A stretch of 64,000 nucleotides of DNA from Deltaproteobacteria bacterium (lineage in GTDB: Bacteria; Myxococcota; Kuafuiibacteriia; Kuafuiibacteriales; Kuafuiibacteriaceae): positions 1 to 64,000 of the forward strand of contig JAVJQW010000060.1 in NCBI GenBank assembly GCA_040218735.1, given 5' to 3'. Below the pieces are notes generated by a model that did no database searches, was not told the origin of the DNA, and saw only the letters and a program-made list of their open reading frames with translations. The translations under genes were made by a program, and so were the position numbers. Positions 26,294 through 45,365 of this stretch are shown here, piece by piece. The first letter of the stretch is position 1. Every line of letters starts with the position of its first letter.

Positions 26294-27534
26294 TTCTGGC
26301 CGGGAAGAGACAGCGTGCCCATCTCCCCCGTCAAGCTCACGGCGCCGGCGCCCTGGTCCTCGTCCGCGATCGACAGCCCGCCCGGCGCGTGCGCGAGGCG
26401 CGACTGGATCCGCGCGAGCGCGTCCTCCGCCTTGGTGCGGAGGACGGCGTCGACCAACCCGTTGAGCACACGCCGCAGCTCGGGCACGGCGTCTCGCCCG
26501 CCCGCGATGCCGAGGGCCTCCGCCGCCGCGAGCTTCGCTTCCAGACTCTGGTACCTCAGCGTGCGGAAGAGCTGCGGCTCGTACGGGGTCTGACCCTGGG
26601 CGACGGCGGCGACCCACCGGCACGTCGCCGCGACCGTCTCGGCGTCGTCGCGTCCGAAGAGGTACGTGACGATCGCGTCGGGGAGCGCGAGACGGTGCCT
26701 TCGCGCGAAGTCGAGCGCGTGCAGGCGCGTCGCGCCGTCCTGGTGACGGAGCACCTTGGTGAGTGTCTCGATGCGCGCTTCGGCGTCGAGCGCGGTGAGG
26801 AGCCGCGTGAGCGCGAGGAGGCGGACGCGTGTGGGCGCGCGCTTCGCATGGAAGATCGCTTCGACGTGGGCGAGGTCGCTCGGGTCGTGCGCCGCGAGGT
26901 GCGTGGCCGCGTCGAGTCGAAGCTCGTAGTCGAAGTGCGCGAGCAGCATTCGCGCGGCGCGGCGCGTCTCGATGTCGTCGCCGAAGTACGTCGTCATCAG
27001 CCCGAAGTTCTTGCGACGCACGGCGACGCGCTCGTCGCTCGTGACGTTGTTTGCGAGGCGCTCGACGACGGGCGCGTCGTTGGAGAGCACCCGTACGAGA
27101 TCGAGCATGCGCCGGACGAACTTTGCGACGGCTTTTCCGTCGAGCTCGCCAGAGATGCGTCCGCGGAGGACGCGCGCCGAGCCTTCTTCGAGTCGCACCT
27201 GGCGGTGCGCGACGGTCGCCCCGCCCTTCACGACCACGTCGACCGTGGCGGCGCGCGCTTCGTGGTGCATGAGCGAGAGCGTCGCGGCCTCGGGGCCCAT
27301 CAGGAACACGCGGGCGTCGAAGCCTTCGTCGCTGGTCTGCAGTCCGCGGAACGGCGCGGAGGTGGAGATGGGTCGGATGGTGAGGTCGGCGAACGTGGGG
27401 CCGCCCTGGACCACGACACGTTCGAGGCGGCCGTCCTTCTTGCCCTCGATGCGGACTTCGCATCCGTCGACGACGCCCGCCAGGGTGCGGGCGAAGAACG
27501 ACTTCGACAGCTCGAGGCCGAGCTCCCAAGCCAC
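26290..27534 (-). CDS. HEAT-repeat-containing hypothetical protein
   Basis: Helical repeats such as KLAAAEALGIAGGRDAVPEL; overlaps the tatD start (GTGA). Confidence 0.7.
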   Translation of the reverse strand: MAWELGLELSKSFFARTLAGVVDGCEVRIEGKKDGRLERVVVQGGPTFADLTIRPISTSAPFRGLQTSDEGFDARVFLMGPEAATLSLMHHEARAATVDVVVKGGATVAHRQVRLEEGSARVLRGRISGELDGKAVAKFVRRMLDLVRVLSNDAPVVERLANNVTSDERVAVRRKNFGLMTTYFGDDIETRRAARMLLAHFDYELRLDAATHLAAHDPSDLAHVEAIFHAKRAPTRVRLLALTRLLTALDAEARIETLTKVLRHQDGATRLHALDFARRHRLALPDAIVTYLFGRDDAETVAATCRWVAAVAQGQTPYEPQLFRTLRYQSLEAKLAAAEALGIAGGRDAVPELRRVLNGLVDAVLRTKAEDALARIQSRLAHAPGGLSIADEDQGAGAVSLTGEMGTLSLPGQK

Positions 27535-27638
27535 GCGGGCGTACGCCTCGTCGGCGTAGTCACTCTGAAAGACGAAGAACGACGTGTCGCTTGCCTCCGG
27601 TCCGATCGATGATGCAGAACGCGCCTCGTCAGATCCAG

Positions 27639-28280
27639 ATGGCCCGCGTACGCTTCTACTTCGACTTCATCTCGCCCTACAGCTACCTCGCGAGCCAGCT
27701 CGTGCGGCGGGCCCCCTACGACGCGCTCGACCTCGAGTACGTCCCGGTCACGTTCGGCAGCATCCTCGCCAAGCTCGACGCGAAGGGTCCCGGCGAGATC
27801 CCGCACCGCCGCAAACACCAGCTGATGGACGTCTTGCTGCTCGCGCGGCACCTCGGGCTCCCCTGCGAGGGACCGCCCACGCACCCCTTCAACTCGGTCT
27901 ACGCGCTCCGCTCGGTGTGCGCGGTCCAGGACCCGGCGAAGCGCGCCGAGCTGACGACGGCGTACTTCGCGGCGACCTGGGGCCGGGGTGAGGCGCTCGA
28001 CGACCTCGCGGTGCTGCGGCGCATTCTCGGGGAGGTCGGAATCGACCACGACCCGGAGGAGGTCGCGACCACGCGCGAGCACCGCGCCGCGCTGAAGGCG
28101 AACACCAAGGCGCTGCTCGAGGCGGGGGGCTGGGGGGTGCCGACGTTCGAGGTCGACGGCCTGCTCTTCTGGGGGCAGGACCGGCTGGACCTCTTGCTGG
28201 CGTATCTGGAGCGAGGTGATGCGCCCGTCGCGGAGCGCGACGCGTTGCTGACGAGGCCTCAGCCCGGGCGCATCACCTGA
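27639..28280 (+). CDS. 2-hydroxychromene-2-carboxylate isomerase / DsbA-family GST-kappa
   Basis: FYFDFISPYSYLA, GVPTF, FWGQDRL; start could be 27609. Confidence 0.9.
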   Translation: MARVRFYFDFISPYSYLASQLVRRAPYDALDLEYVPVTFGSILAKLDAKGPGEIPHRRKHQLMDVLLLARHLGLPCEGPPTHPFNSVYALRSVCAVQDPAKRAELTTAYFAATWGRGEALDDLAVLRRILGEVGIDHDPEEVATTREHRAALKANTKALLEAGGWGVPTFEVDGLLFWGQDRLDLLLAYLERGDAPVAERDALLTRPQPGRIT

Positions 28281-28283
28281 GCG

Positions 28284-30257
28284 TCACTCGTAGATGAGGG
28301 TGACGGGGTCGGCCTGCGCGTATTGGCCGTCCACGACGAACTCCACCGAGGCCTTGCTGACCTCCGACCCAACGATCGGGAGGTCGCTGATCTTGAAGAA
28401 CTGCCCCTGGATCGGTCCCGGCGGGATCTCGTGGAGGTCGAAGATGGCTTCCTTGTCGTCGAACCCGACCACGCGGAGCTTGGCGTCCTCGATCGCGTCC
28501 GGCGCGTCGTCGGCGATGCCGATGTAGAGCAGCGCCGACGGGTCGTCGCCGAGGAAGAGGCCGCACGTCGGGCACGCGATGATAATCGGCTGCGGGACCA
28601 TGTGCGGCACCGAATAGGGCGTGTGGAACTGGGCGCTCGGGCACGGGTTCGAGGTGCCCGCGGGCGCGTGGGAGTACAGCGTCGCGTAACACGGAAAGCC
28701 CAGCTCCTGCCCCGTCACGGCGCCGCCGAAGTCGAGCTCGGTCATGGTCGTGGCGGCGAAGCTCAGGTTCGTCGCGCTTTGGTCGGCCCCCGGGTCGCCC
28801 GCGTCACAGCTCGGAACGTTGAGGCAGTCACCACGCAGGACACACACACGACGCACCGCCCGACAGAACGAGACGCGGCGCGTCTGGGTCGCGCAGGACG
28901 TACCGTTACAGAAATCGACACCGACGCCCGGGAGCGGGATCGCCCGGTTCTGGATCAGATCCATCACTTGGTGGCGTGACCACGTGGGCTGGTATGCCCA
29001 CACCGTTCCCGCCGTTGCGGCGACGGCCGCCGCGGCGACCGACGTACCGGTGAGCGCCGTCGAGTGCGGCTCGCCCACGCGCGTCATCGCGACGTGATCC
29101 GCCGGAGCGACGAGCCTCGGACGCGAACCCGCGCGCTCGATGATCAACGGTCGGTCTCGCCCATCGACGGCCCCCACTGCGTACAGCAGCGGCGTGTAGA
29201 CCCCGGCCTGTGACCCGATGGTGATCCCGAGGGGCGTGCAGCGCGTCTGGTCCGGCGCCGGCTCGGTCTCCCACCCCGCGGGGAAGGCCGGCCCGGTGGA
29301 GGCGCCCGCGCGGCCGGGGAGATTGCCGGCGGCGGCGATGACGAGCGCGCCGCGACACGCCGCGTAGGTGACCGCGGAGTACACCGCGCGCGTCGGGGGA
29401 TCGAGCGTGTTCCATCCGCTCGACACGTCGCCGCCCCAGTAGGGATCCCAACCCAAGCTGAGGTTGACGACGATCGGTCCGGAGCCCTGCGACGCGGCGA
29501 AGTCGACCGCCGAGACGATGGCGCGCGCGGTGTCACTCAGCCGACCGACGAAACCGCCGGACGACGTGTTCAAGACGAGCTCGTGCGTCACGCTGTCCCG
29601 CTCGAGCGCGATCGCGAGGGTCGAAGCCACGTCGACGCGGCACGTCGGACTCGTGTCCCCGAGGGGGCACCCCAGCTTTCGCCCGATCTCACCCATGATC
29701 CGACCGTGATCGAGCTGCCCGGTCCCTGGTTCCGGGAACCCGGTGTTGATCGCCGAGTCGACGACCATCATCCGAGCGCGAACCGGCGGGTTCATCGGCG
29801 GCGGGAAGAACTTCACCGTCGGCGGCGTGCGATCGTCGATCTGATCCAGGAACGCGGTCTCGTACGCGGCCGCGTTGTCCTGAGACCACTGCGACCCGTA
29901 GGCCGCGACGACGTTGCAGTCCGGCTTGGCGCCGGTGGGGAGCAACGACAGGTTCGGCGTCGGGCCCCCGTGCCAATCGTAGACGCAGTATCGCGCGAGC
30001 TCTTCGTCCGACGTCCCTGGGAACACGTGGGCGGCGTCCCAGTTGCCGACGCTCTTGCAGTCATAGGGCCCCGGCGCCGGCAGAATCGCGATCTGACGGG
30101 TTCCAGGACACGCCACTGCCTTGGAGGGCGGGTCGCTATAGCAGATTCCGGAAGCAGTACAGGACAACGCGTTCGTCGCAACGGCCAGCTCGTCCGGTTC
30201 GGCTCGGCACGCTACGAGAATCAAGGAAGTGAGGAGAAGTGCGTCAGATCGTCTCAT
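28284..30257 (-). CDS. S8 family (subtilisin-like) serine peptidase lipoprotein
   Basis: LVAC lipobox; VVDS (Asp), DHG (His), AAAGN, TGTSVAA (Ser). Confidence 0.85.
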   Translation of the reverse strand: MRRSDALLLTSLILVACRAEPDELAVATNALSCTASGICYSDPPSKAVACPGTRQIAILPAPGPYDCKSVGNWDAAHVFPGTSDEELARYCVYDWHGGPTPNLSLLPTGAKPDCNVVAAYGSQWSQDNAAAYETAFLDQIDDRTPPTVKFFPPPMNPPVRARMMVVDSAINTGFPEPGTGQLDHGRIMGEIGRKLGCPLGDTSPTCRVDVASTLAIALERDSVTHELVLNTSSGGFVGRLSDTARAIVSAVDFAASQGSGPIVVNLSLGWDPYWGGDVSSGWNTLDPPTRAVYSAVTYAACRGALVIAAAGNLPGRAGASTGPAFPAGWETEPAPDQTRCTPLGITIGSQAGVYTPLLYAVGAVDGRDRPLIIERAGSRPRLVAPADHVAMTRVGEPHSTALTGTSVAAAAVAATAGTVWAYQPTWSRHQVMDLIQNRAIPLPGVGVDFCNGTSCATQTRRVSFCRAVRRVCVLRGDCLNVPSCDAGDPGADQSATNLSFAATTMTELDFGGAVTGQELGFPCYATLYSHAPAGTSNPCPSAQFHTPYSVPHMVPQPIIIACPTCGLFLGDDPSALLYIGIADDAPDAIEDAKLRVVGFDDKEAIFDLHEIPPGPIQGQFFKISDLPIVGSEVSKASVEFVVDGQYAQADPVTLIYE

Positions 30258-30268
30258 CTTAGTCCCTC

Positions 30269-30295
30269 TATGCGGCGGCCCTCGAAAAACTCACG
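30269..30295 (-). promoter_or_regulatory. Putative ECF promoter CGTGAG-N16-GCATA for the S8 gene
   Basis: Minus strand CGTGAGtttttcgagggccgccGCATA; same boxes and spacing as the copies at 34473 and 34532. Confidence 0.65.
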
Positions 30296-32990
30296 GCACA
30301 TAAACTCGAAATGCTGCCCAGTCCGAAGCGCTGTCGGTCGCCAACGCCGACAACTGGGCCGCCCGCAAAGACTTGGAGAGTGCGAGATCGGGATCCTTGT
30401 AGAGATTCGACGTCACAAGTCTCGCATCGCCATCCTTGACCTCGCGCGTCGTGGCAATGACGGCATGACTACCCGCGAGCACGAACGCGCGGGCTGGACC
30501 GACCTCGTTCGTATGAGGCGGTGCAGTCGTGCAGCCCGAGAGTACGACGCGAGCCGGCACACTCGGCAGCGCCAGGATGTCGGCCACACCGAGGAGCGCA
30601 CGTCCGGCGAGCGGTAACGCCGCGCTGAACCCAACCTCCGCGTCATCCGTTCCGTGCCCAGCCCAGTGGAGCAGTGAAACACCGCGAATCGAACTTTCGA
30701 GGCGTCGGCGTGTTACGGACCGCCCCTCGAGGATCCGTGTTTCGACGCCCCCCGCTCGTAGTTCATCACCTACCGCGCGTGCTTCGTCGCGCGCGTGTGG
30801 GAGGTTGCCCGTCGGGTCCGCAACCACGAGCGCACGCCCGTTTGCCTTGTTCGTCGTAGGTACGGCGAACCCGCCCGAAGCGTAGATGATCTCGTAGGAC
30901 GCAACGAACGGTCGACCGTTCCAAGGAAGAGCGTGAAAGTCGATGTGTTGGGCAAGGTCTCGCGCCACAATTCTCACACGTGTCCGCCCGTCGAGTTGTC
31001 GAGTAAACGGTTGGAGCAGCAAGGTCGTGAGCACGGTCGGCGCCGCGAAAACATCGATCGCGCTCCGACGAACCCAACGTCTTGATTCCTCCGTCTCGGC
31101 CAGTACGATCCAGCCGTCACCGAGTCGATCAATCGTGAGCACGACCTCCCCGGGTGCGGGAGCGTGACGATCGACCCGACCGCTTCGACCCGGCCCCAAC
31201 ACTCGAAGCGCGGCTGTGAGCGAGGACCGAATCTCCTCCTGTAGTCGAGCGCGCGCCCGCGCCCGACTGCCTCGCGTGGTGTCAGCGTCCGACCAGGCAT
31301 CCGAGTCGAACCCGTCCAGCTGAGCTCGAAGTGCGTTGTAGGTCATCGCGGCCCGCTCCCATTCGCGTCGGTCCACGCCTCTCAGCGAGGCTATCCGAAA
31401 GCTCCGTTCGACGACTCGCTGCGATCGAAGCGCATGGCGATGGAGAACCTCGACGGCCCTCTCCCCGCCCCGAAGCTCCAATGCCAGACTCGCGTGCCGA
31501 CGCGCGGCACTATTCATCGCGTCAATGTTGAAGCGATGTCCCGGAATGGCGAACGGCACGTCCTTCGAGGCCTCGAGTATCGCCTCCGCGGCTTCGTAGG
31601 ACTCGAGGGCCCGACGCCGATCCTCGGACGCTTCGAAAGTGCTCGCGCGCCCGATGGACGCACTCCACCGCAGGGTGTCGGCCCCCACGCGTTCCCCGAG
31701 CGCCTCCAACCCCTCGTAGCCGGCCAAGGCCTCGCCGAACTTGCCTGCGCGCGTCGCAAGACGAGCAAGGACGATCAGCGACCAAGCATCGACTTCGGTC
31801 ACGCTGGGTGCCCCGTCCTGCTGCGCCCGCTCGACGTAGCTTCTCGCCCGGTCGTCGTCTCCCGAGTGAAGCGCATCGAGTGCGAGCGTAACTTCGACGT
31901 TCCGTGCGTTGATGAGGTTCGGGCAACCCACTTGATAGATCGCAAGGGCCCGTTCCCCATCGGTTCGAGCATCGAAGGACGGGTCGCGTCCGAACTCGTC
32001 CGCAAGCACCGCGACCCACGCTCGATTACCTAGAAAGCGAGCAACTGCGCACGACGCCTGGGAGAGAGGCATCTCCGTCGCCATGTGGCGATAGAGCGCA
32101 TTCGCCTGTTCATGAAGTCCGAGCGTCCCCAAGACGTCCGCTCGAATCTGCGCCGCCTGATGCGCGGCGACATCCTCGAGACGGCGGCCGAAGCTCTCGG
32201 AGCGTCGAGCGAGCTCGATCGCACCGCGCGCATCGCCGACCTCACGCGCGAGAACGGCCTCGTAGAGATCGATATAGGCAGGCTCCCCCCCGAGTGTGTG
32301 GGGAAGTCGTCGCTTCGCCTCCAGGATGGCGCGTCTCGCCGTATCGACGTCTCGTGTCACCACAGAGCCAATCCAGGCGATTGTCCCAAAGGCGTAGACC
32401 GGCCCCGAGATCAGCTCCGCGTACTCCCCAAACGTGGCACTGAGCCTGCGTTGACGGATCGCCTCCTCGAAGCTCGCCCCACTGAACGCGATCCTCGCAC
32501 GCATCGTCGCCACGTCGGCGAGCGTGCGCACGTCCGCGCCCTCCTCGTTCGCGTCGAGGATCGCCAACGCCGTCGTCGCCGACTTCGTGCGCAGCGCGTC
32601 CGCCTTCACGAGCCAGGGCGGGCGCTTCCACACCACGACCGGGAGCGCGTACTTGTCGCGGCCCCTCCGCGTCGCGACCACGTCGATCGACTTGGTGGCC
32701 GTCGTGACCTCGAAGGTCGTGCGCCAGCCGCCATCGACCTCCGTCCACTCGACCTCCGTGCCTTCGACCGTCAGCTTCGACTCGGGTGCCGCTTGGACCC
32801 AGAGCACCACCTTCGTGTCGTTCTCGATCTCACAGATCGGTCCGCGTCGGATCTGTTCGCAGCCCGCGATGCGGACGTCTTCGATCAGCGATTCCGGGTC
32901 GGGTTCGCGCGTTCGTTCTCGGCACGCGACGAGCGCGAACGAAATTCCCAAGATGAGCTCAAGGCGCCGCACCGAGCGGCTGGATCTCAA
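30291..32990 (-). CDS. CHAT-domain (caspase-like) protease lipoprotein with helical/TPR-like region
   Basis: LVAC lipobox; VVADPTGNLPHARDEA, HWAGHG (His), VLSGC (Cys), AFVLAG, DWAAF. Confidence 0.88.
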   Translation of the reverse strand: MRSSRSVRRLELILGISFALVACRERTREPDPESLIEDVRIAGCEQIRRGPICEIENDTKVVLWVQAAPESKLTVEGTEVEWTEVDGGWRTTFEVTTATKSIDVVATRRGRDKYALPVVVWKRPPWLVKADALRTKSATTALAILDANEEGADVRTLADVATMRARIAFSGASFEEAIRQRRLSATFGEYAELISGPVYAFGTIAWIGSVVTRDVDTARRAILEAKRRLPHTLGGEPAYIDLYEAVLAREVGDARGAIELARRSESFGRRLEDVAAHQAAQIRADVLGTLGLHEQANALYRHMATEMPLSQASCAVARFLGNRAWVAVLADEFGRDPSFDARTDGERALAIYQVGCPNLINARNVEVTLALDALHSGDDDRARSYVERAQQDGAPSVTEVDAWSLIVLARLATRAGKFGEALAGYEGLEALGERVGADTLRWSASIGRASTFEASEDRRRALESYEAAEAILEASKDVPFAIPGHRFNIDAMNSAARRHASLALELRGGERAVEVLHRHALRSQRVVERSFRIASLRGVDRREWERAAMTYNALRAQLDGFDSDAWSDADTTRGSRARARARLQEEIRSSLTAALRVLGPGRSGRVDRHAPAPGEVVLTIDRLGDGWIVLAETEESRRWVRRSAIDVFAAPTVLTTLLLQPFTRQLDGRTRVRIVARDLAQHIDFHALPWNGRPFVASYEIIYASGGFAVPTTNKANGRALVVADPTGNLPHARDEARAVGDELRAGGVETRILEGRSVTRRRLESSIRGVSLLHWAGHGTDDAEVGFSAALPLAGRALLGVADILALPSVPARVVLSGCTTAPPHTNEVGPARAFVLAGSHAVIATTREVKDGDARLVTSNLYKDPDLALSKSLRAAQLSALATDSASDWAAFRVYVP

Positions 32991-33690
32991 CCGAAAGCTC
33001 GAATGATTGCCACCCGTTGCCGGTCGTCACGCCGCCTCGTTCGTCGGGTTCCGGAAATGCATTCGCGCGCCCCACGAACGCAACGAATTTCACCGGTCCT
33101 GTCTGTCCTGCGCTCAACTCCCGAGCGACGCCCAGCCACCGCACCGCGCCGTTCACCGAGACCTCGGGCGCCACCGGCGACCGTACCGCGCGGTCGGCGG
33201 TCACGACCCACAGCGCACCGTCGATCTTCCCCGAAGCGATCCGCGCCGGCTGCGAGACGATCGACATCTCGGAATCCTCGCGCAGCGTGCGTGACTTCGG
33301 CTTCGCCTCGCTACGCCAGATCGCATCACCCGCCTCCGCCTTGAACGTGTACTGCGGTATCGCCTCGACCCCCGCCGTCGAGAACAACAGCACCGCGGCC
33401 GCCGCCGCGAGGACGACGCCCACGCCCGCACCGACCCACGGCAGCCGCCGAACCTTGGCGCTCGAGGTTCGTGCCGTCGTCGTCAACTTGGCTTGCACGT
33501 CGGCGCCGAGCGGCCGGAACAGCGACACCGCCTCCGCGAGCTTCTCGTCCTGTTCTGCATCGCGGAGCAACGCCGACATCTCGTCGTCCGAGAGCTCCCC
33601 CAGCGCGAGGCGCTCCAGACGCGGATCGATCTGTTGCTCCTGCTCTGTCATGAGCTCACCTAGCTGATATGCAACATCGTCGTCAGACAT
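32959..33690 (-). CDS. Membrane-anchored anti-sigma-factor-like protein
   Basis: Acidic helical N-terminus (LERLALGELS), one TM (GVGVVLAAAAAVLLF), C-terminal beta-rich domain; overlaps both the sigma and CHAT genes. Confidence 0.7.
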   Translation of the reverse strand: MSDDDVAYQLGELMTEQEQQIDPRLERLALGELSDDEMSALLRDAEQDEKLAEAVSLFRPLGADVQAKLTTTARTSSAKVRRLPWVGAGVGVVLAAAAAVLLFSTAGVEAIPQYTFKAEAGDAIWRSEAKPKSRTLREDSEMSIVSQPARIASGKIDGALWVVTADRAVRSPVAPEVSVNGAVRWLGVARELSAGQTGPVKFVAFVGRANAFPEPDERGGVTTGNGWQSFELSVEIQPLGAAP

Positions 33691-34342
33691 GACGACCCTC
33701 GTCCGACTCGATTTCGTTTCGTAGCTCGCGCAACATCTTCGTGAGTCGGCTGCGCCACGCGTAGAGCGCCTGCTTCGTCGTCCCCGTGGAGTCTGCCGCG
33801 TCCTGCACCGACATGTTCTCTACGTACAGCAGCGAAAAATACTGCCGCCCGCGGGGACTCAAACGTTCGCGCAGACGCTCCGACAACCGATCGAGCAGAT
33901 CGCGCGACTCGATACGCTCCATTACGCCTTCGTCCTGCCCGGACAGGTACACCAGCCGATCGTCCATCGTCGGATCCTCGGTCCACGGATTCCGCTTCCC
34001 GGTTCGCATCAGCATGCCGACCTCGCGCTCCGCGAGGAAGCCCACGAACCCCGCGAACGAGAGCCCACGCGACGGATCCCACTGACGGAGCGCGCGCCCC
34101 TCGCGCGCGAACAACGCTGCGAAGACCTCCTGCACGAGGTCCTCGAGATCCGTACGCAGGTCACGCCCCCGCGACTGCTGCTTGCGCCTCAACATCGCGC
34201 GCGCCGCACGGGTGTGCACCACGGGCGCGAGCGCTGCCACCAGCGCGTCCATCCGCTCCGCGTCTCCCTTCAGCGCGCGGTCGACCCACTCTTGGATCTC
34301 ATCGGCGCTCCTCTCATCGAGTCCGGCCATCGCTTTGGTCAC
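33683..34342 (-). CDS. ECF RNA polymerase sigma factor
   Basis: Region 2 DLEDLVQEVFAALF..WDPSRG; region 4 LSPRGRQYFSLLYVENMSVQDAA..ALYAWRSRL; GAGG upstream of GTG 34342. Confidence 0.88.
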   Translation of the reverse strand: MTKAMAGLDERSADEIQEWVDRALKGDAERMDALVAALAPVVHTRAARAMLRRKQQSRGRDLRTDLEDLVQEVFAALFAREGRALRQWDPSRGLSFAGFVGFLAEREVGMLMRTGKRNPWTEDPTMDDRLVYLSGQDEGVMERIESRDLLDRLSERLRERLSPRGRQYFSLLYVENMSVQDAADSTGTTKQALYAWRSRLTKMLRELRNEIESDEGRHV

Positions 34343-34472
34343 TCGTCGACCTCGTTTTCTGCGGCGCGTGTTCGTCCAGACGCTCGTGGCGAGGCAGGCG
34401 GACGCTAGAGCCTCCGCGGGATCGTCGCAACACGAGCAGGTGTCCCAACCTCTCGACACCTCGCCTAGTCGC

Positions 34473-34499
34473 TATGCAACCGCACCTCAAAACCTCACG
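34473..34499 (-). promoter_or_regulatory. Putative autoregulatory ECF promoter CGTGAG-N16-GCATA
   Basis: Minus strand CGTGAGgttttgaggtgcggttGCATA upstream of the sigma gene. Confidence 0.7.
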
Positions 34500-34531
34500 C
34501 GATCCGCCGCTGGTTCTTCTTCGCGGCCCAT

Positions 34532-34558
34532 CGTGAGATCCGCCGCGCCCTCGGCATA
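34532..34558 (+). promoter_or_regulatory. Putative ECF promoter CGTGAG-N16-GCATA for the tyrosinase-like operon
   Basis: CGTGAGatccgccgcgccctcgGCATA, 45 nt before ATG 34604. Confidence 0.7.
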
Positions 34559-34603
34559 TCCCTCCGCGAGCGAACGAAAACCCAACGCTCGAAAGGAACG
34601 CAC

Positions 34604-35854
34604 ATGCTGAGAACTTCAATCGCGACCGCCGTCGCCTTGGGGACGTTCGTCCTCGCCGCGCCGGCCTTCGCCGTGGGCCCCAACCCCGCGTGCAGCTGGT
34701 ACGGCTCGATGTCGACCCAGGAGTACGTCTTCTACAACCAGACCGGAATCACCGGCTTCGAGCGCGGCTTCCTCATCCACTCCGGCGACTACGACACCGC
34801 CAACAGCCGCATCGACTACACGATCGAATACCTCTCCGACCCGATGGACTGCTCCGGTGAGCTCTTCATCCTCCGCTTCCCGCTGCACGGCCTCGCCGAC
34901 CACGTCGAGATCGAGGTGTACGAAGCGGCCGGTCCCCTCCTCGGCGGCCTCGTCGCCGACAAGGGCACGCTCCCTACGATTTACGACCACACGAACACCC
35001 CGCTCTCCCCTGGCGTGCTCGGCCCGTTCGTGATCACCAACCCGATGATGAACCAGGTCTCGCGCATCCTCCTCTTTCCGCTCCTCGACGCGCGCACCCT
35101 CGCCGCCGTCCCCGAGCCCCTCACCTACAACGGCGCCGCGCCCGCGAACTGGGTTCAGGAGCTCTTCATGGGCATGGCCTACCAGTTCGCGGTCGGCCAG
35201 CGCTCCGAGCTCTACTCGCTCTTCACCTTCCGCCGAATGCTCGTCGGCATGAACGCGGCCGCGCGGCAGCGCGCGTCGGATGCGATCGACGCCCACGTCT
35301 ACGACGTCGGTGAGTTCGCCGCGACCGTCTGGGAAGACCACCCGTTCGTGAACCACGGCGTCGCGGTGACGCCGTACGTCGCCGGCGTCACCTGGGGCGG
35401 CTTCTTGAACGGCCACAAGAAGTACCTCGAAGCCATGGAGGACCACCTCTTCACGCTCCCCGACGCCGAACGCACCCCGTTCCGCCGCACCCCCGCTTGG
35501 AACTCGGACCAGACCGTCCCCGCCGAGTTCAACATCGGCATCAACAACACCACGTCCGTCCAGGTGATGCCCGGGTCGTACGACCCGTCGGTGATCTGCT
35601 CCAACTACGACCCCACGACCTACGCGGGCGCGACGTACTACGACCAACTCATCGCGGCCGAGATCGACATCGACGCCGACATCGAGCCCTGGCACGGCAA
35701 CACCCACGTCGACCTCGGCGGCGACATGGGCAGCGTCGCCACCGCCGGACGCGCGCCGATCTTCTTCCCCTGGCACACCACCATCGACGCCCCCTGGACC
35801 AACTGGCGCCTCTGCTGGCCGGCCTGGGATCCCGACGACTACGACTGGTTCTAA
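34604..35854 (+). CDS. Secreted protein with C-terminal tyrosinase-like (type-3 copper) domain
   Basis: Signal peptide (AFA); CuA-like EDH..NHG..FLNGHKKYL; CuB EPWHGNTH..GGDM..PIFFPWHTTID; AAAGGAA RBS. Confidence 0.75.
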   Translation: MLRTSIATAVALGTFVLAAPAFAVGPNPACSWYGSMSTQEYVFYNQTGITGFERGFLIHSGDYDTANSRIDYTIEYLSDPMDCSGELFILRFPLHGLADHVEIEVYEAAGPLLGGLVADKGTLPTIYDHTNTPLSPGVLGPFVITNPMMNQVSRILLFPLLDARTLAAVPEPLTYNGAAPANWVQELFMGMAYQFAVGQRSELYSLFTFRRMLVGMNAAARQRASDAIDAHVYDVGEFAATVWEDHPFVNHGVAVTPYVAGVTWGGFLNGHKKYLEAMEDHLFTLPDAERTPFRRTPAWNSDQTVPAEFNIGINNTTSVQVMPGSYDPSVICSNYDPTTYAGATYYDQLIAAEIDIDADIEPWHGNTHVDLGGDMGSVATAGRAPIFFPWHTTIDAPWTNWRLCWPAWDPDDYDWF

Positions 35855-35869
35855 ACGGAGGACCCCACG

Positions 35870-37354
35870 ATGAAGACCACAGCACTCACCGCCGCGTTCA
35901 CGCTGCTCGCAAGCAGCGCGTACGCCCAGAACGTCCTCGTGATCATCGGCGACGACATCGCCGTCGACAAAGTCAGCTCGTACGCGGGTGACTACCCGGG
36001 CTACGCGCCCGCGTACCTCCCGCAGACGGACGCGATCGACGGCCTCGCCGCCGCCGGACTCCGCTTCACCCGCGCGTGGGCGACGCCGCTGTGCTCGCCG
36101 ACGCGTGTCTCGTTTCAAACGGGCAAACACCCGTTCCGCACGGGCATCGGCACCGCGCTCGGCGCCAGCGCCGCTGGCGTCGACCCGGACGCGCACCTCA
36201 TGCTCGCCGAGTCCTTCCAGAACTTCGGCTACGTCACCGGCATGTTCGGCAAGTGGCACATGGGCACGGAGGACGCCGCCGGCGTCACCGGCTACCCGGC
36301 GACGAGCCCGTTCTTCGTCGAACCGCACCCACACCGCTCGGGGTGGATGCGCTTCTTCGGGCTCTACAGCGGCTACCCCGGCTTCGGGCGCAGCTTCACC
36401 GACTGGCCGCGCGTCGGCTGGGTGGACGCCACGTCGACGGGCTACGCCGCCGACGAGACCGCGCACCACACGAACCGCACCTCGGCCGTCGCCGTGAACT
36501 GGATCTCGAACCAGACCGAGCCGTGGATGGCGGTCGTCGCGTTCAGCGCGCCGCACTCGCCCGACACCGGCTCGTCGGCCTGGCAGTACGGCGACGCCGA
36601 CGTCACGCGCTACCGCACGCCGGCCCTGTCGTGCCTCGCGACGAGCTCGTGTGGCAACGAGCCGCTCTCGGTCTACCAGGGGCTCGCGGAACACGTGGAC
36701 CTGGAGATCGAAGACCTCCTCAACGGCATCCCTGACGCGATGATGGACGAGACGCTCATCATCTTCTTCGGGGACAACGGCACGCCGGTCGCGGTGCAGG
36801 AGAGCACCTTCGCGGTCGGCCGCGGCAAGGGCACCACGTACGAAAACGGCGTGCGCGTCCCGTTCATCGTCACCGACGGCGCCACGTGGCGCACCAACGC
36901 GCCGGGCCGCATCACGAGCCCCGGTCGTGACGTCGACATCGCGCTGAGCTCCACGGACATCTACCAGACGCTGCACATGGAGCTGTTGAGCGTCGGCGTC
37001 CTCGGCGTCGACTCGAGCTCGTTTGCGACGTGTTTCAGCAACACGGGCCAGTACTGCAGCATCGCGGACAAGCGCTACGGCTACTCCGAGACCTACGTCG
37101 CGGGCGCCTCACTCAGCAGCGCGCGCGTCGGGGTACGCTACGGCCACGACAAGATGGTCGCCGAGTACGACCCGGCCGGAGGCTGCATGGCCGCCGAGTA
37201 CTACGAGACGAGCGGCGATCCGATGGAGCTGTCGCCCACCGGATGGACCGGCATCCGCGCGACGCGGTTGCAGGATCACTTCACGGCGCTGCACGCCTCG
37301 GAGCCCAGCTCCTGGGCGAACCTCACCGGCTCGACGATCGGCTTCTGCCCGTGA
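35870..37354 (+). CDS. Secreted sulfatase-like hydrolase
   Basis: NVLVIIGDD, CSPTR, FGKWH, APH, GDNG, GKG..YE.GVRVP. Confidence 0.9.
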   Translation: MKTTALTAAFTLLASSAYAQNVLVIIGDDIAVDKVSSYAGDYPGYAPAYLPQTDAIDGLAAAGLRFTRAWATPLCSPTRVSFQTGKHPFRTGIGTALGASAAGVDPDAHLMLAESFQNFGYVTGMFGKWHMGTEDAAGVTGYPATSPFFVEPHPHRSGWMRFFGLYSGYPGFGRSFTDWPRVGWVDATSTGYAADETAHHTNRTSAVAVNWISNQTEPWMAVVAFSAPHSPDTGSSAWQYGDADVTRYRTPALSCLATSSCGNEPLSVYQGLAEHVDLEIEDLLNGIPDAMMDETLIIFFGDNGTPVAVQESTFAVGRGKGTTYENGVRVPFIVTDGATWRTNAPGRITSPGRDVDIALSSTDIYQTLHMELLSVGVLGVDSSSFATCFSNTGQYCSIADKRYGYSETYVAGASLSSARVGVRYGHDKMVAEYDPAGGCMAAEYYETSGDPMELSPTGWTGIRATRLQDHFTALHASEPSSWANLTGSTIGFCP

Positions 37355-39072
37355 GACGAGGGCTCATCGCAGGGTCGTTCGTCGGCCTCGTGATCGCCGG
37401 CGCGTTCCTCCTCCGTCCTTCGACGGAGGGGGCGCGCCCGGCGCCCGCCGCGTTCGTCGACGAGGCGCGCTGCGCCGGCTGTCACGCCGAAGAAGCGGAG
37501 CGTTGGCGTGGCTCTCCGCACGATCGCGCGATGGAGCTGCCCTCCCCTTCGACGGTGCGTGGTGACTTCGACGACGCGGTCTTCGAGGACACTCGCCTGT
37601 TGCGCGAGGGCGACGACTACTTCGTCGAGGTCGCGGGACGACGCCACCGCGTCGTCTACACGTTCGGCGCCGCGCCGCTGCAACAGTACTTGCTCGAAGC
37701 CGACGGCGGTCGGCTGCAGGCCTCCGCGGTCGCCTGGGACGTCGACGCCGGGAAGTGGTTCCGCGTCCAGGATCCGGCCGTGCACTACCTCGGCCGCTAC
37801 CAGACCTGGAACACGATGTGCGCCGACTGCCACTCGACCGGCGTCGACAAACGCTACGACGCCGAGACCGATCACTTCGACACGCGCTTCGCGCAGATCG
37901 ACGTCGGCTGTCAGAGCTGCCACGGCCCGGGCTCGCAACACGCCGATGACCCCGACGTCGCGCTCGCCGTTCGCAACGAGGTCGAAGCCTGCGCACCGTG
38001 CCACGCGCGACGCGCGCCGCTCACGGAGCGCGCGGATCCGCTGGAGCCGTTCACCGACCACTACCGACCGATGACGCTCCAGCCGGGGCTGTACTTCGCG
38101 GACGGACAGATCCGGGACGAGGTGTTCACGTACGGCTCCTTCGCGCAGAGCGCGATGCACGCGGCCGGCGTGACGTGCACCGACTGCCACGACCCCCACG
38201 GCGCGACGAAGCTCGCGAGCAACAGAACTTGCCTGACCTGTCACGGCGCGACGCCGCCGGATCGATTCGCGTCCCTGGCGAAGCGCAAACGCAACCTCGA
38301 CACCCCCGCTCACCACCACCACGCCGAGGGGAGCGCCGGCGCGCAGTGCACCGCGTGCCACATGCCGACGCGCACCTATATGGGCGTGGACGAGCGACAC
38401 GATCACCGCTTCGCGATCCCGCGGCCGGATCTGTCTGCGAAGCTCGGCACCCCCGACGTCTGCACCGACGCGTGCCACACCGACCGCGACGCGACGTGGT
38501 CCGCCGAGATCGTCCGTGGCTGGGGCGCCGAACGCCGGCCACACTTCGGCGAGCTTTTCGCGCGCGCCCAGGCCGGCAACCGCGACGTCCCGGCGCTCAC
38601 GCGCCTCGCGAAGAGCGACGCACCCGCGATCGTCCGCGCGACGGCGCTGGAGTGGCTCGCGATGCCGCCCGTTGCGTGCGACACCTCGCTGGTCCGCGAC
38701 CCGGACCCCTTGGTCCGCAGCGTCGCGGTGACGTGCGCGGAGGCGTTGTCGCCCACCGCGCGCGTGAAGGCGATCGGCGGCCAGCTCGAGGACGCGAGCC
38801 GACTCGTGCGCGTCGAGACCGCGCGTGTCCTCGCGCCGGTCGCGACAGCGCTCCGCGGCCCCCAGCGCGAGGCATACACACGCGCGCGGGAGGAGCTCAC
38901 CCGGATGTACACGAGCCAAACCGATCGCCCCGAGGGCCACTTCAACCTCGGCCTCCTCGCCGAGGCGGAGGGGGATCGCGATGAAGCCGCGCGTCGCTAC
39001 AAACGCGCGCTCGAGCAGGACCCGCTCTTCCGCCCGGCGCGCGTGAACCTGTATCTGATGCAGCAACGCTGA
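37351..39072 (+). CDS. Multiheme c-type cytochrome with HEAT/TPR C-terminus
   Basis: Seven CxxCH plus one CxxxCH; GTGA overlap with the sulfatase stop. Confidence 0.88.
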   Translation: MRRGLIAGSFVGLVIAGAFLLRPSTEGARPAPAAFVDEARCAGCHAEEAERWRGSPHDRAMELPSPSTVRGDFDDAVFEDTRLLREGDDYFVEVAGRRHRVVYTFGAAPLQQYLLEADGGRLQASAVAWDVDAGKWFRVQDPAVHYLGRYQTWNTMCADCHSTGVDKRYDAETDHFDTRFAQIDVGCQSCHGPGSQHADDPDVALAVRNEVEACAPCHARRAPLTERADPLEPFTDHYRPMTLQPGLYFADGQIRDEVFTYGSFAQSAMHAAGVTCTDCHDPHGATKLASNRTCLTCHGATPPDRFASLAKRKRNLDTPAHHHHAEGSAGAQCTACHMPTRTYMGVDERHDHRFAIPRPDLSAKLGTPDVCTDACHTDRDATWSAEIVRGWGAERRPHFGELFARAQAGNRDVPALTRLAKSDAPAIVRATALEWLAMPPVACDTSLVRDPDPLVRSVAVTCAEALSPTARVKAIGGQLEDASRLVRVETARVLAPVATALRGPQREAYTRAREELTRMYTSQTDRPEGHFNLGLLAEAEGDRDEAARRYKRALEQDPLFRPARVNLYLMQQR

Positions 39073-39132
39073 GCGCCATCGCCCGCCGCGGCGAACGACA
39101 CACGCCGGTCTTCGTCGTCCAGGCGGCTTTTG

Positions 39133-40725
39133 CTACCGGCGACGCCGTCGCGCGCACCACAGCGCGCAGAGCACCAGCCCCACGACGAGCCCGGGCGATC
39201 GGCGGCGTCCGTGCGTCGCGCACGCGCAGCCCTCGTCGAGCTCGACCTCGTCCGGCGCGGTGACCGTTCCGCCGTCACGGACGACCCCCGCGTCGAGCGT
39301 GCCCGCGTCGACGACACCGGCGTCCGGCGCGGGCATCGTGCAGTCCTCCCGCCCCCGCGTCACGTCGACGGTCACCGCGGTCCAGCCCTTCGACCGCGCG
39401 CCCTCCCGTCGCTGCGCCACGGCGAGGATCTGCGTCTCGCCGTCGGCCGCCCACGCGTGGCAGCGAAGGATCACGCCGTCCGCGCTCTGTTCCACGACGC
39501 GACCGTTCACGAGGAGCGTGAGGTCGAACCGCTCGCCCTCCGCGTCACCGACGACGCCGATCTCCACCGCCCCGTCGATCACGTCGCCGTCCGCGACGCC
39601 GATCAGCTCGACGGTCGGCCGGTCCGCGTAGGGCGCCGCCATCGGATCGCCGAGCACGAGGTTGCGCCAGTACACGAACGGCATGCGCTTCAGGTACGCC
39701 TCCGCGAGGGTGTAGCCGTCGACGTAGTCGACGAGCAGGTGCCGCGACGGGAAGCAGTTGTTGAGCGGCTCCGCGACCGCCCCGTGCGCGCCCGCCACGC
39801 CCTGCTCGACCCAACGGGCGATGGAGACTTGCGCCTCGTCCTCGGGCGCACCGAAGTTCGCGGGGACCGCGCCCAGGCTCGTGAGGTTGTCGACGATCGC
39901 GCCCGGCCGAAACGTGTTGCCCTCGATCGTCGTGTCGAGCCGCGCCGTCCCCACGAAGAACGCCGCGAGGGTGTGGCCGGTCTCGTCGCGTGAGAACGCG
40001 GGCCGCGAGACGTCCGTGAACCCGCGCGCGTCGAGCGCGGCCATCACCGCGTCGTACTCACGATCGAGCACCCCCCGCGCGTTGTCGGCGCCGTCCATCA
40101 GCATGAACGTTCCGTCAGCGCCGCCGAGCGCCTCCGCGGTGGTGGCGCTCGCGATGAGCCGCTCGACGTCCCGCTCCGTGCGCGCGTCGAGCGCGGTGAC
40201 GAGTCGTAACGACCACTCCACGTTCTGGCCCGTCGCGACGAAACCGGGCTCGAACGGCCCGTCGCGGTACGGGTTGCGCCACGTCGCGGAGTAACACGGG
40301 GTGTTGCCGCACATGACCCGCACGCCGGCCGGCTGCCCGACGAAGTCCGCGCCGGTCGAGGTCCGCGAACCGCTCACCCCCAGCACCGCCGCGAGGGACG
40401 CGACGCCCCCCTGTAGGTTCACGCGCTGGGGCACGCCGCGCACGAGCACGACCGCCTCGATTCGATCCCACGCTTCGCCGAGGCACGCGACGAGCGGCGC
40501 CTCCAGCGCGTCGCGGAACACGGCGACATCGATGGTGGCCTGCGTCGGGAGGTCGAGCAGGCACACGTGCTCCCGTGGGATGTCGCGCGCCGCGCGGTAG
40601 CGCTCGGCGAGCCGCACGCTCGCATCGTCGTTGACGTTCGCGACGACCGCGACCGAGTCGGGCCCCGGCACCGCCCACGCGGCGCTCGGCGCGAGCCCGA
40701 CGACGATCGCGATCAGGCGTCTCAT
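39133..40725 (-). CDS. TIGR03790-like protein with MYXO-CTERM-like tail
   Basis: [24 protein letters not shown] motifs; C-terminal GCAC + TM + RRRR. Confidence 0.8.
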
Positions 40726-42152
40726 ACTTCGAGGAGCAGTCGCGTCGGGTGCTCGACGAGGTCCTTGATCTTCACGAGGAAGGTCACTGCTTCGCGGCCG
40801 TCGACGAGGCGGTGATCGTACGTCAGCGCGACGTACATCATCGGGCGGATCACGACCTGCCCGTCCACCGCGACCGGTCGCTCCTGAATCGCGTGCATCC
40901 CGAGGATGCCGCTCTGCGGCGGGTTCACGATCGGCGTCGACATCAGCGATCCGTAGACGCCGCCGTTGCTGATCGTGAAGGTCCCGCCCTCGAGCTCGTC
41001 GATCGAGAGTTTGTTGTCGCGCGCGCGTTTGCCGTAGTCGGCGATCGTCTTTTCGACCTGCGCGAATGACATCCGCTCTGCGTCCCGGATCACCGGCACG
41101 ACGAGCCCGCGCCCGCCGCCCACGGCGACGCCGATGTCGTAGTAGTCGTGGTACACGATCTCGTTTCCGTCGATGAACCCGTTGATCGCCGGGAACGCCT
41201 TGAGCGCCTCGATCGCCGCCTTCACGAAGAAGGACATGAACCCGAGCTTGATGCCGTGCCGCTCGACGAACTGCGGCTGGTACTGCTTCCGCAGCGACAT
41301 CACCTCGCTCATGTCGATCTCGTTGAACGTCGTCAGCAGCGCCGCCTCTTGCTGCGCCCCGACCAACCGCTCCGCGATCCGCGACCGCATCCGCGTCATC
41401 CGCACCCGCTCCACCGAACGCGGCCCGGCCTGCGGCGGCGCCTGAACCTTCTCGCGGTCGCCGTCGAGATCGTCCATCGTGACGCGCCCGCCGTTGGGCT
41501 TGAGGGAAGCGGGGGCGATGCCGCGCTCACGCAACGCGCGCCGAACAGCCGGAGAAGCCTGAACCTCCGAAACACCCCCGGACGTCGGCGGAGCCACGGG
41601 AGCCGGCGCTCCCCCGGTCCCGGTACCGGTCCCGGTCCGGGTCCCGGATTCGTCCGAAGCGTCGGCCTTGGGCGCGGACTGGGAATCGGACCCGGAATCG
41701 GATCCGGATGCGGATCCGGATGCGGATCCGGAAGCGGATCCGGAAGCGGATCCGGACAGGGAAACGGTCTCGGACTCGGAACCGGAACCGGTACCTGAAT
41801 GGGAACCCGAGCCCGAGCCGGAACCCGAACCCGAACCCGAACCCGAACCCGAACCCGAACCCGAACCCGAAGCCCCGGCCGAATCGGGACCCGGACCGGT
41901 ACGGGTACCGGAGGTGGCCTCCTCCATGTAGGCGACCACCTCTCCGACCTCCGCCACGTCTCCTGCTTTTTTCAGGATCTTGGTGATCTTGCCGGCCACC
42001 GGGGCCACCAGATCCACATTCGCCTTGTCCGTCTCGATCACCGCCACGGTCTCGTCGAGCGACGCCGAGCTCCCGACGTCCTTCACCCACTCCGCGATCG
42101 TGACTTCGGTGATCGACTCACCCGCCGACGGAATCTTCAGTTCGATGGCCAT
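40722..42152 (-). CDS. sucB: Dihydrolipoamide succinyltransferase (ODH E2) with long Gly/Ser linker
   Basis: Lipoyl [36 protein letters not shown]. Confidence 0.95.
41615..41905. repeat. Hexanucleotide-based low-complexity tract encoding the SucB GS/GT linker
   Basis: (GAACCC)n at about 41821-41870, GGATCCGGATGC/GGATCCGGAAGC 12-mers at about 41700-41755. Confidence 0.85.

Positions 42153-45365
<3,213 letters not shown>

Follow-up and report, generated by a model that had tools for sequence, protein, structure and literature searches.

What reads a bipartite motif that stands three times around a single sigma factor gene, and which genes does it join? The question is raised by a 64,000-nucleotide stretch of DNA (the window; positions 1 to 64,000 of contig JAVJQW010000060.1, assembly GCA_040218735.1) from a myxobacterium deposited as Deltaproteobacteria bacterium, in which CGTGAG-N16-GCATA occurs beside a gene for a sigma factor of the extracytoplasmic function (ECF) type (33686-34330, minus strand). 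An autoregulated ECF sigma factor with a bipartite promoter is a well-known kind of circuit. A preliminary description of the locus had proposed the motif as the cognate promoter of the adjacent sigma factor, and this proposal is strengthened by the specificity of the 16-nt spacer, the placement of the copies at gene starts, the conservation of the promoter in the sigma family and the exact sites at a corresponding locus of another genus (contig C44 of genome G004). The motif is most probably a promoter read by RNA polymerase carrying the adjacent sigma factor, a reading that merits a probability of about 0.85 on the evidence of sequence. A bipartite promoter standing before its own sigma gene and before its targets would account for the pattern, the spacer controls, the orientation of the copies and their conservation in relatives.

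Occurrence of the motif in the genome

The genome assembly comprises 11,606,468 bases in 70 contigs (68.8% G+C), the window being contig C50. An exact pattern scan of the window returns exactly three matches, at 30295-30269 and 34499-34473 on the minus strand and at 34532-34558 on the plus strand, which are the copies and the 16-nt spacer first described. One hundred dinucleotide-preserving shuffles of the window give a mean of 0.03 matches, with no shuffle reaching three. On both strands of the whole genome the motif occurs seven times, while the same two boxes at nine other spacer lengths (12-15 and 17-21 nt) give no match at any length and the reversed pattern gives none. The motif is therefore real, rare and bound to its 16-nt spacer. 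Six of the seven copies lie just 5′ of a start codon, with gaps of 9, 9, 9, 11, 13 and 45 nt, and all six are oriented toward the gene that follows; the three in the window account for the gaps of 11, 13 and 45 nt. The frames behind the six copies are long and high in third-position G+C, and five of them open with a signal-peptide-like or lipoprotein N-terminus. These results bear out the earlier statement that each window copy points at a start codon, and the genome-wide scan that had been proposed as a check comes out in favour of the promoter reading.

The consensus of 13 sites, drawn from three genomes, is cgCGTGAGnTy-N13-GCATA(g/t). The spacers had been called unrelated, which holds for most of their length but not for the second position, a T in 12 of the 13 sites compared.

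Predicted promoters and target genes

The copy before the sigma operon (P_sig, 34473..34499, minus strand) is followed by a GTG (34459) 13 nt past GCATA and, in frame, by an ATG at 34330. Divergent from it stands P_tyr (34532..34558, plus strand), with an ATG (34604) 45 nt downstream that is preceded by AAAGGAA. The two lie back to back with 32 bp (34500-34531) between their -35 boxes, and two polymerases may compete or cooperate there. The third copy, P_S8 (30269..30295, minus strand), is an internal promoter at the junction of the CHAT and S8 genes with an ATG (30257) 11 nt past GCATA; its -35 box contains the TGA of the CHAT gene, confirming the overlap with the CHAT stop codon reported earlier.

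On the minus strand, P_sig precedes genes for the ECF-type sigma factor (215 aa from ATG 34330; 33686..34330; TIGR02937), whose open frame reaches up to GTG 34459, for an anti-sigma-like protein (243 aa; translation 32962..33690) with an acidic N-terminus, one transmembrane helix and a periplasmic domain, and for a CHAT-domain lipoprotein (899 aa; 30294..32990; Pfam CHAT, E 1.3e-23; N-terminus ...FALVAC). The target of P_S8 encodes an S8 subtilase lipoprotein (657 aa; 28287..30257, minus strand; Pfam Peptidase_S8, E 4.2e-11) with the N-terminus MRRSDALLLTSLILVAC (...LILVAC).

On the plus strand, P_tyr faces a gene for a secreted tyrosinase-like protein (416 aa; 34604..35854) that has a signal-peptide-like N-terminus and matches the C-terminal part only of the Pfam Tyrosinase domain (E 3.1e-9). 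The second gene of the unit encodes a sulfatase (494 aa; 35870..37354; Pfam Sulfatase, E 7.3e-33), whose ATG has a GGAGG box and lies 15 nt past the tyrosinase-like stop codon. It is followed by a multihaem c-type cytochrome gene with C-terminal TPR (37351..39072; Pfam cytochrome c7/c3/c554 and TPR), for which a GTG overlapping the sulfatase stop codon is the likely start; in the long frame a hydrophobic segment begins near residue 108. Consensus scans find no plus-strand terminator-like site inside this unit before 39112 and no sigma-70-like promoter in 27500-40900. The hairpin at 39112..39127 (plus strand), 3′ of the cytochrome gene, is a weak call, with six such sites in the region against 4.3 expected. 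Sulfatase and cytochrome join the regulon by operon inference only, because of the 15-nt gap, the stop/start overlap and the lack of a terminator-like site before 39112. The preliminary description had tied S8 protease, tyrosinase-like protein, sulfatase and cytochrome into one regulon; the S8 and tyrosinase-like genes do have motif copies of their own, the other two follow by their position in the operon, and the regulon would extend beyond the locus.

Three unlinked copies have their ATG 9 nt past GCATA. They precede genes for an M14 zinc carboxypeptidase (C17:52902; Pfam E 7.9e-34), an M10 matrixin-like metalloprotease (C52:120980; E 1.6e-7) and a secreted RTX-like protein with a weak RTX-repeat match (C56:102865; 22.5 bits, cut-off 23). 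Allowing one mismatch adds 71 sites, mostly intragenic and, except for a few positions, not clearly above the background at other spacers. Two of them are retained, as both have the extended box CGTGAGATC and stand before genes for secreted proteins: C9:213114 (-10 box ACATA), before a second M10 protease gene, and C18:258741 (-10 box GCACA), before a secreted protein of unknown family. Both are probable regulon sites. Two others were rejected, C60:17678 as the ATG overlaps the -10 box and C17:102118 as no open frame follows. The regulon would thus comprise about eight promoters, mostly of secreted hydrolases, with the M14, M10 and RTX-like genes and the two probable sites lying outside the locus.

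Probably leaderless targets

At the M14, M10 and RTX-like genes the ATG begins exactly 9 nt past GCATA, and no Shine-Dalgarno or purine-rich box stands between. According to the available part of Todor et al. 2020 (PMC7776599), ECF sigma factors contact the -10 element at -13/-12 and the -35 element at -34 and -31. If CAT replaces the usual CGT, GCATA spans -14 to -10 and CGTGAG spans -36 to -31, the variable base lies at -33 and +1 is the A of the ATG. Judged by this geometry the three mRNAs are probably leaderless, and in all three or four targets have that look. Across the sigma family described below, an ATG lies 3-14 nt past the motif at 16 of 59 sites, compared with a mean of 6.1 and a maximum of 14 at random places in the same loci (200 draws).

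Sigma factor and anti-sigma-like protein

The sigma factor scores 46.8 bits against TIGR02937 (cut-off 42.9), and the profile of its family (A1) has a hit confined to sigma-2 in PDB entry 9isn_F ('ECF sigma factor', E 7.1e-5). Searches with phmmer of PDB sequences return no match for the sigma factor or the CHAT protein. An AlphaFold2 model of the sigma factor is all-helical with a C-terminal helix-turn-helix (helices 175-182 and 186-213; mean predicted local distance difference test score, pLDDT, 85.6). Together these features are those of an ECF (group 4) member of the sigma-70 family. ATG 34330 is favoured as the start, because homologues align from about residue 45 of the long frame that opens at GTG 34459; third-position G+C agrees, being higher in the core (0.82) than in the N-terminal extension (0.70).

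The anti-sigma-like protein has an acidic N-terminus without Cys or His in residues 1-82, a transmembrane helix at about residues 83-104 and then a periplasmic domain. It matches no anti-sigma family in Pfam or NCBIfam. The gene at this +1 position is kept across the sigma family; its products share the N-terminal pattern D-PR(L/W)-x-LA-x-G-x-L ... PL and have a single membrane helix as well as a periplasmic domain. Modelled as a complex, the sigma factor and residues 1-82 score 0.76, whereas the best of three controls reaches 0.01. Such a score is attained by 116 of 157 solved complexes and by 2 of 215 mismatched pairs, a calibration that holds only roughly here, as custom alignments were used and sigma/anti-sigma pairs also resemble solved complexes. 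The runs share at least 62% of contacts, and the pLDDT of the partner is at least 77. The model supports, rather than shows, binding of the sigma factor by the 243-aa protein.

Conservation in the Myxococcota

Homologues of the sigma factor occur in 13 of 41 related genomes: its own, 11 of the 19 others in its family and, from other families in the phylum, 1 of 21. Seventeen aligned members have a distinctive RNPWTEDP linker, and with this alignment 80 loci of the sigma family were drawn from a genome collection. Nearly all are from Myxococcota (including Sorangium and Chondromyces), with a few from Acidobacteriota bins. Searches with tblastn (E <= 1e-5) place a CHAT homologue downstream of the sigma gene in 49 of the 80 loci, a relative of the 243-aa protein in 21 and an S8 relative in 10; these counts are lower bounds, as many loci end before the genes could appear. 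Judged by such alignments and gene orders, the sigma factor belongs to a Myxococcota-wide family arranged as sigma, one-pass anti-sigma and CHAT lipoprotein.

The core.GT.AG-N16-.C[AG]TA is found at 59 sites in the 80 loci, against 5, 2, 4, 2, 6 and 6 at spacers of 13, 14, 15, 17, 18 and 19 nt. The sites fall in three clusters: 40-210 nt 5′ of the sigma gene, within the 3′ end of that gene ahead of the next one, and past the CHAT gene, about 4.0-4.3 kb downstream. The usual -35 box of the family is (T/C)GTCAG(A) and the family promoter xGTCAG-N16-xC(A/G)TA. Read against this consensus, the CGTGAG motif of the window is a putative lineage-specific variant of the family promoter, with C changed to G at the fourth base of the -35 box. 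The suggestion that the motif would recur upstream of orthologous sigma genes is upheld in the form of this related core with the same 16-nt spacer, and as the exact variant in G004.

G004 belongs to another genus and, among 20 genomes of the family, holds three exact copies without any match to the reversed pattern. On its contig C44 one exact copy precedes the sigma gene and another, 4133 nt further downstream, precedes an S8 gene (4204 nt separate the equivalent sites of the window); each copy has an ATG 13 nt past GCATA. Between them lie an anti-sigma-like gene (35% identical to that of the window, E 1e-33) and a CHAT gene. The third copy is upstream of a gene for a trypsin-like lipoprotein. 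The tyrosinase-like operon is not beside the sigma module in G004. Genome G016 also holds three exact copies, one of them 9 nt before a gene for a signal-peptide protein and a second about 90 nt before a lipoprotein-like frame. Copies in the remaining related genomes are mostly without a downstream gene and at the level of the reversed-pattern control.

In 15 loci (L049, L054, L055, L066, L074, L077, L083, L086, L088, L089, L091, L104, L113, L117 and L118) the promoter lies in the 3′ end of the sigma gene, 545-607 nt past the start of the sigma match and just before the anti-sigma-like gene, and no core site is seen upstream of the sigma gene. The sigma factor of such loci may drive the anti-sigma and CHAT genes but not itself.

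Residue 187 and the fourth base of the -35 box

Single residues of sigma-4 set single -35 bases in ECF sigma factors, according to the portion of PMC7776599 consulted. In an alignment of 83 family members (numbered by the 215-aa sigma factor), column 187 is the only one in which the window sigma and L053, the sigma of G004 contig C44, share a residue (Gln) absent from the 81 other rows. The AlphaFold2 model puts it second in the predicted recognition helix of sigma-4. Base-by-residue counts were taken over every core site in the 80 loci with no positional filter. Asp at 187 goes with C at 33 sites, G at four, T at two and A at one; Glu with C at three and T at one; Ala with C at four; and Thr with C at two. 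Gly goes with A at all six sites, which come from four of eight loci, and Gln (L053) with G at all three. A second, independent set of 80 metagenome loci has Asp with C at 25 of 25 sites and one sigma with Gly187 and Thr191 alongside CGTAAGA.

A maximum-likelihood tree built from 35 members groups the window sigma with L042 (support 98/91) and L053 with L044, L047 and L048 (100/99). The Gln/GTGAG state therefore lies in two separate, well-supported groups. The window genome itself (G000) encodes four members of the family: the window sigma, the only one with Q at residue 187, and paralogues at C14:25099, C42:507309 and C42:512342 that have D, T and G there. The promoters of these three paralogues were not found in their own genome, where GTCAG-N16-GCATA is not enriched (one site, against 0-2 at other spacers). 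Five other Gly187 sigmas were checked for an A-type site: the G000 paralogue L034 has TGTAAGA upstream with a spacer of 14 nt, and the other four are without a site at the canonical spacing.

The covariation of residue 187 with the -35 base is the strongest argument for reading by the adjacent sigma and not by another protein, and it rests on two Gln loci. A bolder proposal is tentative and rather doubtful as a whole: that residue 187 works like a dial, a single residue setting the -33 base, across the Myxococcota sigma/anti-sigma/CHAT family (Asp with C, Gln with G, Gly together with Thr191 with A), that the Gln/G state arose in two branches, and that in this organism it would drive largely leaderless mRNAs for secreted proteases, with the S8 protease made from an internal promoter feeding back on the CHAT/anti-sigma switch. 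If the dial is true, paralogous modules in one genome could run insulated regulons.

Evidence against the assignment and alternative explanations

Several observations weigh against the assignment of the motif to the adjacent sigma. A search for RNA runs that cover window 29800-36000 found none. Some concern the motif itself. The seventh exact copy in the genome (C24:69527) has no credible gene downstream and may be a chance match. P_S8 is directly followed by a GAGGG ribosome-binding box that would be absent from any P_S8 transcript; only read-through from upstream would make use of the box, which counts against the leaderless reading. The sigma factor falls below the Pfam cut-offs for both Sigma70_r2 (22.5 bits, cut-off 24) and r4_2 (20.3, cut-off 25.7). 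Conservation of the exact motif stands on one other locus, because the four closest sigma homologues (L010, L011, L012 and L022; 58-64% identity) have no exact motif within 1.5 kb; two of the four carry GTCAG versions, judged by eye. The same-genus genome G001 has no copy, in an assembly that is 75% complete. The covariation has gaps of its own. All four G-base sites in Asp loci are far (1.6-3.9 kb) from the sigma gene, four of the eight Gly-type loci show no core site, and the metagenome locus L151, with Gly187 and Ala191, has CGTCAGA, an exception to the pairing of Gly with A. A Gln187 sigma is absent from the 80 metagenome loci and from the sigma contigs examined in G016 (940 contigs), which holds three exact motif copies, so that Gln187 with GTGAG is known from two loci only.

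A promoter of the family type could be read by a paralogous sigma instead of the adjacent one. Sequence alone is compatible with cross-talk among paralogues: the genome encodes four sigmas of this family, the window sigma among them, and has 13 matches to it at E <= 1e-10. Yet only the adjacent sigma has Q187, the residue paired with GTGAG, whereas the paralogues have D, T and G; two motif copies flank the adjacent sigma gene; and G004 shows the same arrangement, its Q-type sigma being flanked by GTGAG sites and its D-type paralogue (L043) lying in a locus with GTCAG sites instead. Reading by a paralogue is accordingly improbable, and about as improbable is a binding site for a transcription factor or other DNA-binding protein in place of a promoter. 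A bipartite site with a fixed spacer could suit a two-domain DNA binder, but the two boxes are dissimilar and form neither a direct nor an inverted repeat, every one of the six sites with a gene faces it, and in five of the six the start codon comes 9-13 nt later. Moreover, 27500-40900 offers no sigma-70-like promoter, and one -35 base varies in step with a residue in the recognition helix of the sigma itself.

Least probable of all is that the three copies arose by chance or are relics of a duplicated segment. The C24 copy does look like a chance match, and related genomes hold 0-3 copies, mostly without a gene downstream. Against this stand the shuffle mean of 0.03 in the window, the absence of genome matches at nine other spacers and the exact motif at equivalent places in another genus. 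As neither the spacers nor the flanks are related, the copies are not duplicated DNA.

Proposed circuit

If the motif is the promoter of the adjacent sigma factor, the circuit could run as follows. The sigma factor would be held at the membrane by the adjacent one-pass anti-sigma-like protein, a step consistent with the complex model. Once freed, it would transcribe its own operon (sigma, anti-sigma and CHAT genes) in positive autoregulation, the S8 protease gene from the internal promoter, the divergent tyrosinase-like/sulfatase/multihaem cytochrome unit, and at least three unlinked genes for secreted proteins (the M14 carboxypeptidase, the M10 metalloprotease and the RTX-like protein). The change to G in the -35 box, at about -33, would pair with Gln187 where most relatives carry Asp. 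The periplasmic CHAT and S8 proteases are candidates, as a guess, for cutting the anti-sigma.

The result is a testable wiring diagram for an uncultured myxobacterium with a large genome: one sigma factor, about eight predicted promoters and mostly secreted hydrolases. It also supplies a consensus promoter for a sigma family that is widespread in Myxococcota and built round a CHAT protease. GTCAG and GTGAG would form a natural, near-identical promoter pair with a candidate single-residue determinant, a type of part used for orthogonal ECF switches. The covariation of residue 187 with the -33 base and the leaderless geometry are the parts most worth attention at the bench.

Strain variation and neighbouring genes

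Contigs from four DNA runs represent a strain about 98% identical, too close to inform on conservation of the motif. In all of them the alignment breaks at the same two places, bounding window 30323-32487 (minus strand; CHAT residues ~168-889), and one strain contig spans the break with sequence of equal length that is more than 15% diverged. The flanks are conserved, and the CHAT/TPR body between them has the look of a cassette that varies by strain. P_S8 begins 28 nt outside the boundary of this divergence. Further along, a gene convergent to that of the cytochrome (window 39133-40725, minus strand) encodes a 530-aa member of TIGR03790 (E 4.5e-37), an uncharacterised family, and window 42153-45365 (minus strand) encodes a 2-oxoglutarate dehydrogenase E1 with a cyclic-nucleotide-binding domain at residues 119-199 (PF00027, E 3.7e-16), an insertion unusual for the enzyme.

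Comparison with known systems

A literature search of partial coverage found no description of the sigma family or of a GTCAG/GTGAG-N16-GC(A/G)TA promoter, and one may yet have been published elsewhere. The comparisons here are with excerpts of the cited sources. The TGTCAGA that occurs in PMC6180224 is unrelated to the promoter of the sigma family.

ECF54 of the Actinobacteria resembles the system in its neighbourhood of subtilase, CHAT and TPR genes, and its -35 box, GTATCAG, shares TCAG with the TGTCAG of the family (PMC7826278). As described in that excerpt, ECF54 is confined to Actinobacteria, has no putative anti-sigma, has a carboxypeptidase-regulatory-like protein at +1 and uses CTCC at -10; here the phylum is Myxococcota, a one-helix anti-sigma-like gene stands at +1 and the -10 box is GC(A/G)TA. 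Identity with ECF54 is ruled out by phylum, -10 box and +1 gene, and only the subtilase/CHAT context is common to both. The string GTCAG is absent from the examined part of the PMC7826278 supplement. ECF210 and ECF216, known from Myxococcales only, overlap in taxonomic range, and ECF216 has a one-helix +1 protein; these two were compared by their text descriptions only (PMC7826278). Their predicted promoter motifs are stated in that 2021 reclassification not to be conserved, whereas a conserved motif is found here.

DdvS/DdvA of Myxococcus xanthus is likewise a myxobacterial ECF system in which a membrane anti-sigma is tied to a periplasmic TPR-CHAT part and several sigma-dependent promoters lie in and around the locus (PMC6061681, PMC11506125). 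In DdvA a zinc-binding anti-sigma domain, one transmembrane helix and a TPR-CHAT part of ~900 residues, whose His-Cys site is incomplete, are joined in a single protein. In contrast, the window has separate overlapping frames (32959-33690 and 30291-32990), a CHAT protein with its own lipoprotein signal and an anti-sigma-like protein without Cys or His in residues 1-82; the same split of anti-sigma and CHAT is found in G004. The DdvS promoters have AAc at -35 and cGT at -10 (PMC6061681), against CGTGAG and GCATA here, and the DdvS regulon comprises CRISPR-Cas and CBASS, compared with secreted enzymes here. The split architecture and the different promoter boxes rule out a DdvS/DdvA-type identity, within the published parts compared.

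The closest likeness in kind is to ECF (group 4) systems in general, which share a two-domain sigma factor, an adjacent one-pass membrane protein, a promoter of the sigma operon itself with a 16-nt spacer and a small regulon of linked and unlinked genes (PMC7776599). Nothing here overturns current knowledge of ECF sigma factors: the circuit is ordinary in kind, and its signature is unusually clean. It differs from the group as described in that excerpt in a -35 box without AAC, in a -10 CAT where most have CGT, and in several targets that look leaderless. As in the code of Todor et al. 2020 (PMC7776599), one sigma-4 residue tracks one -35 base; a further difference is that the covarying residue here stands six residues before the RSR motif.

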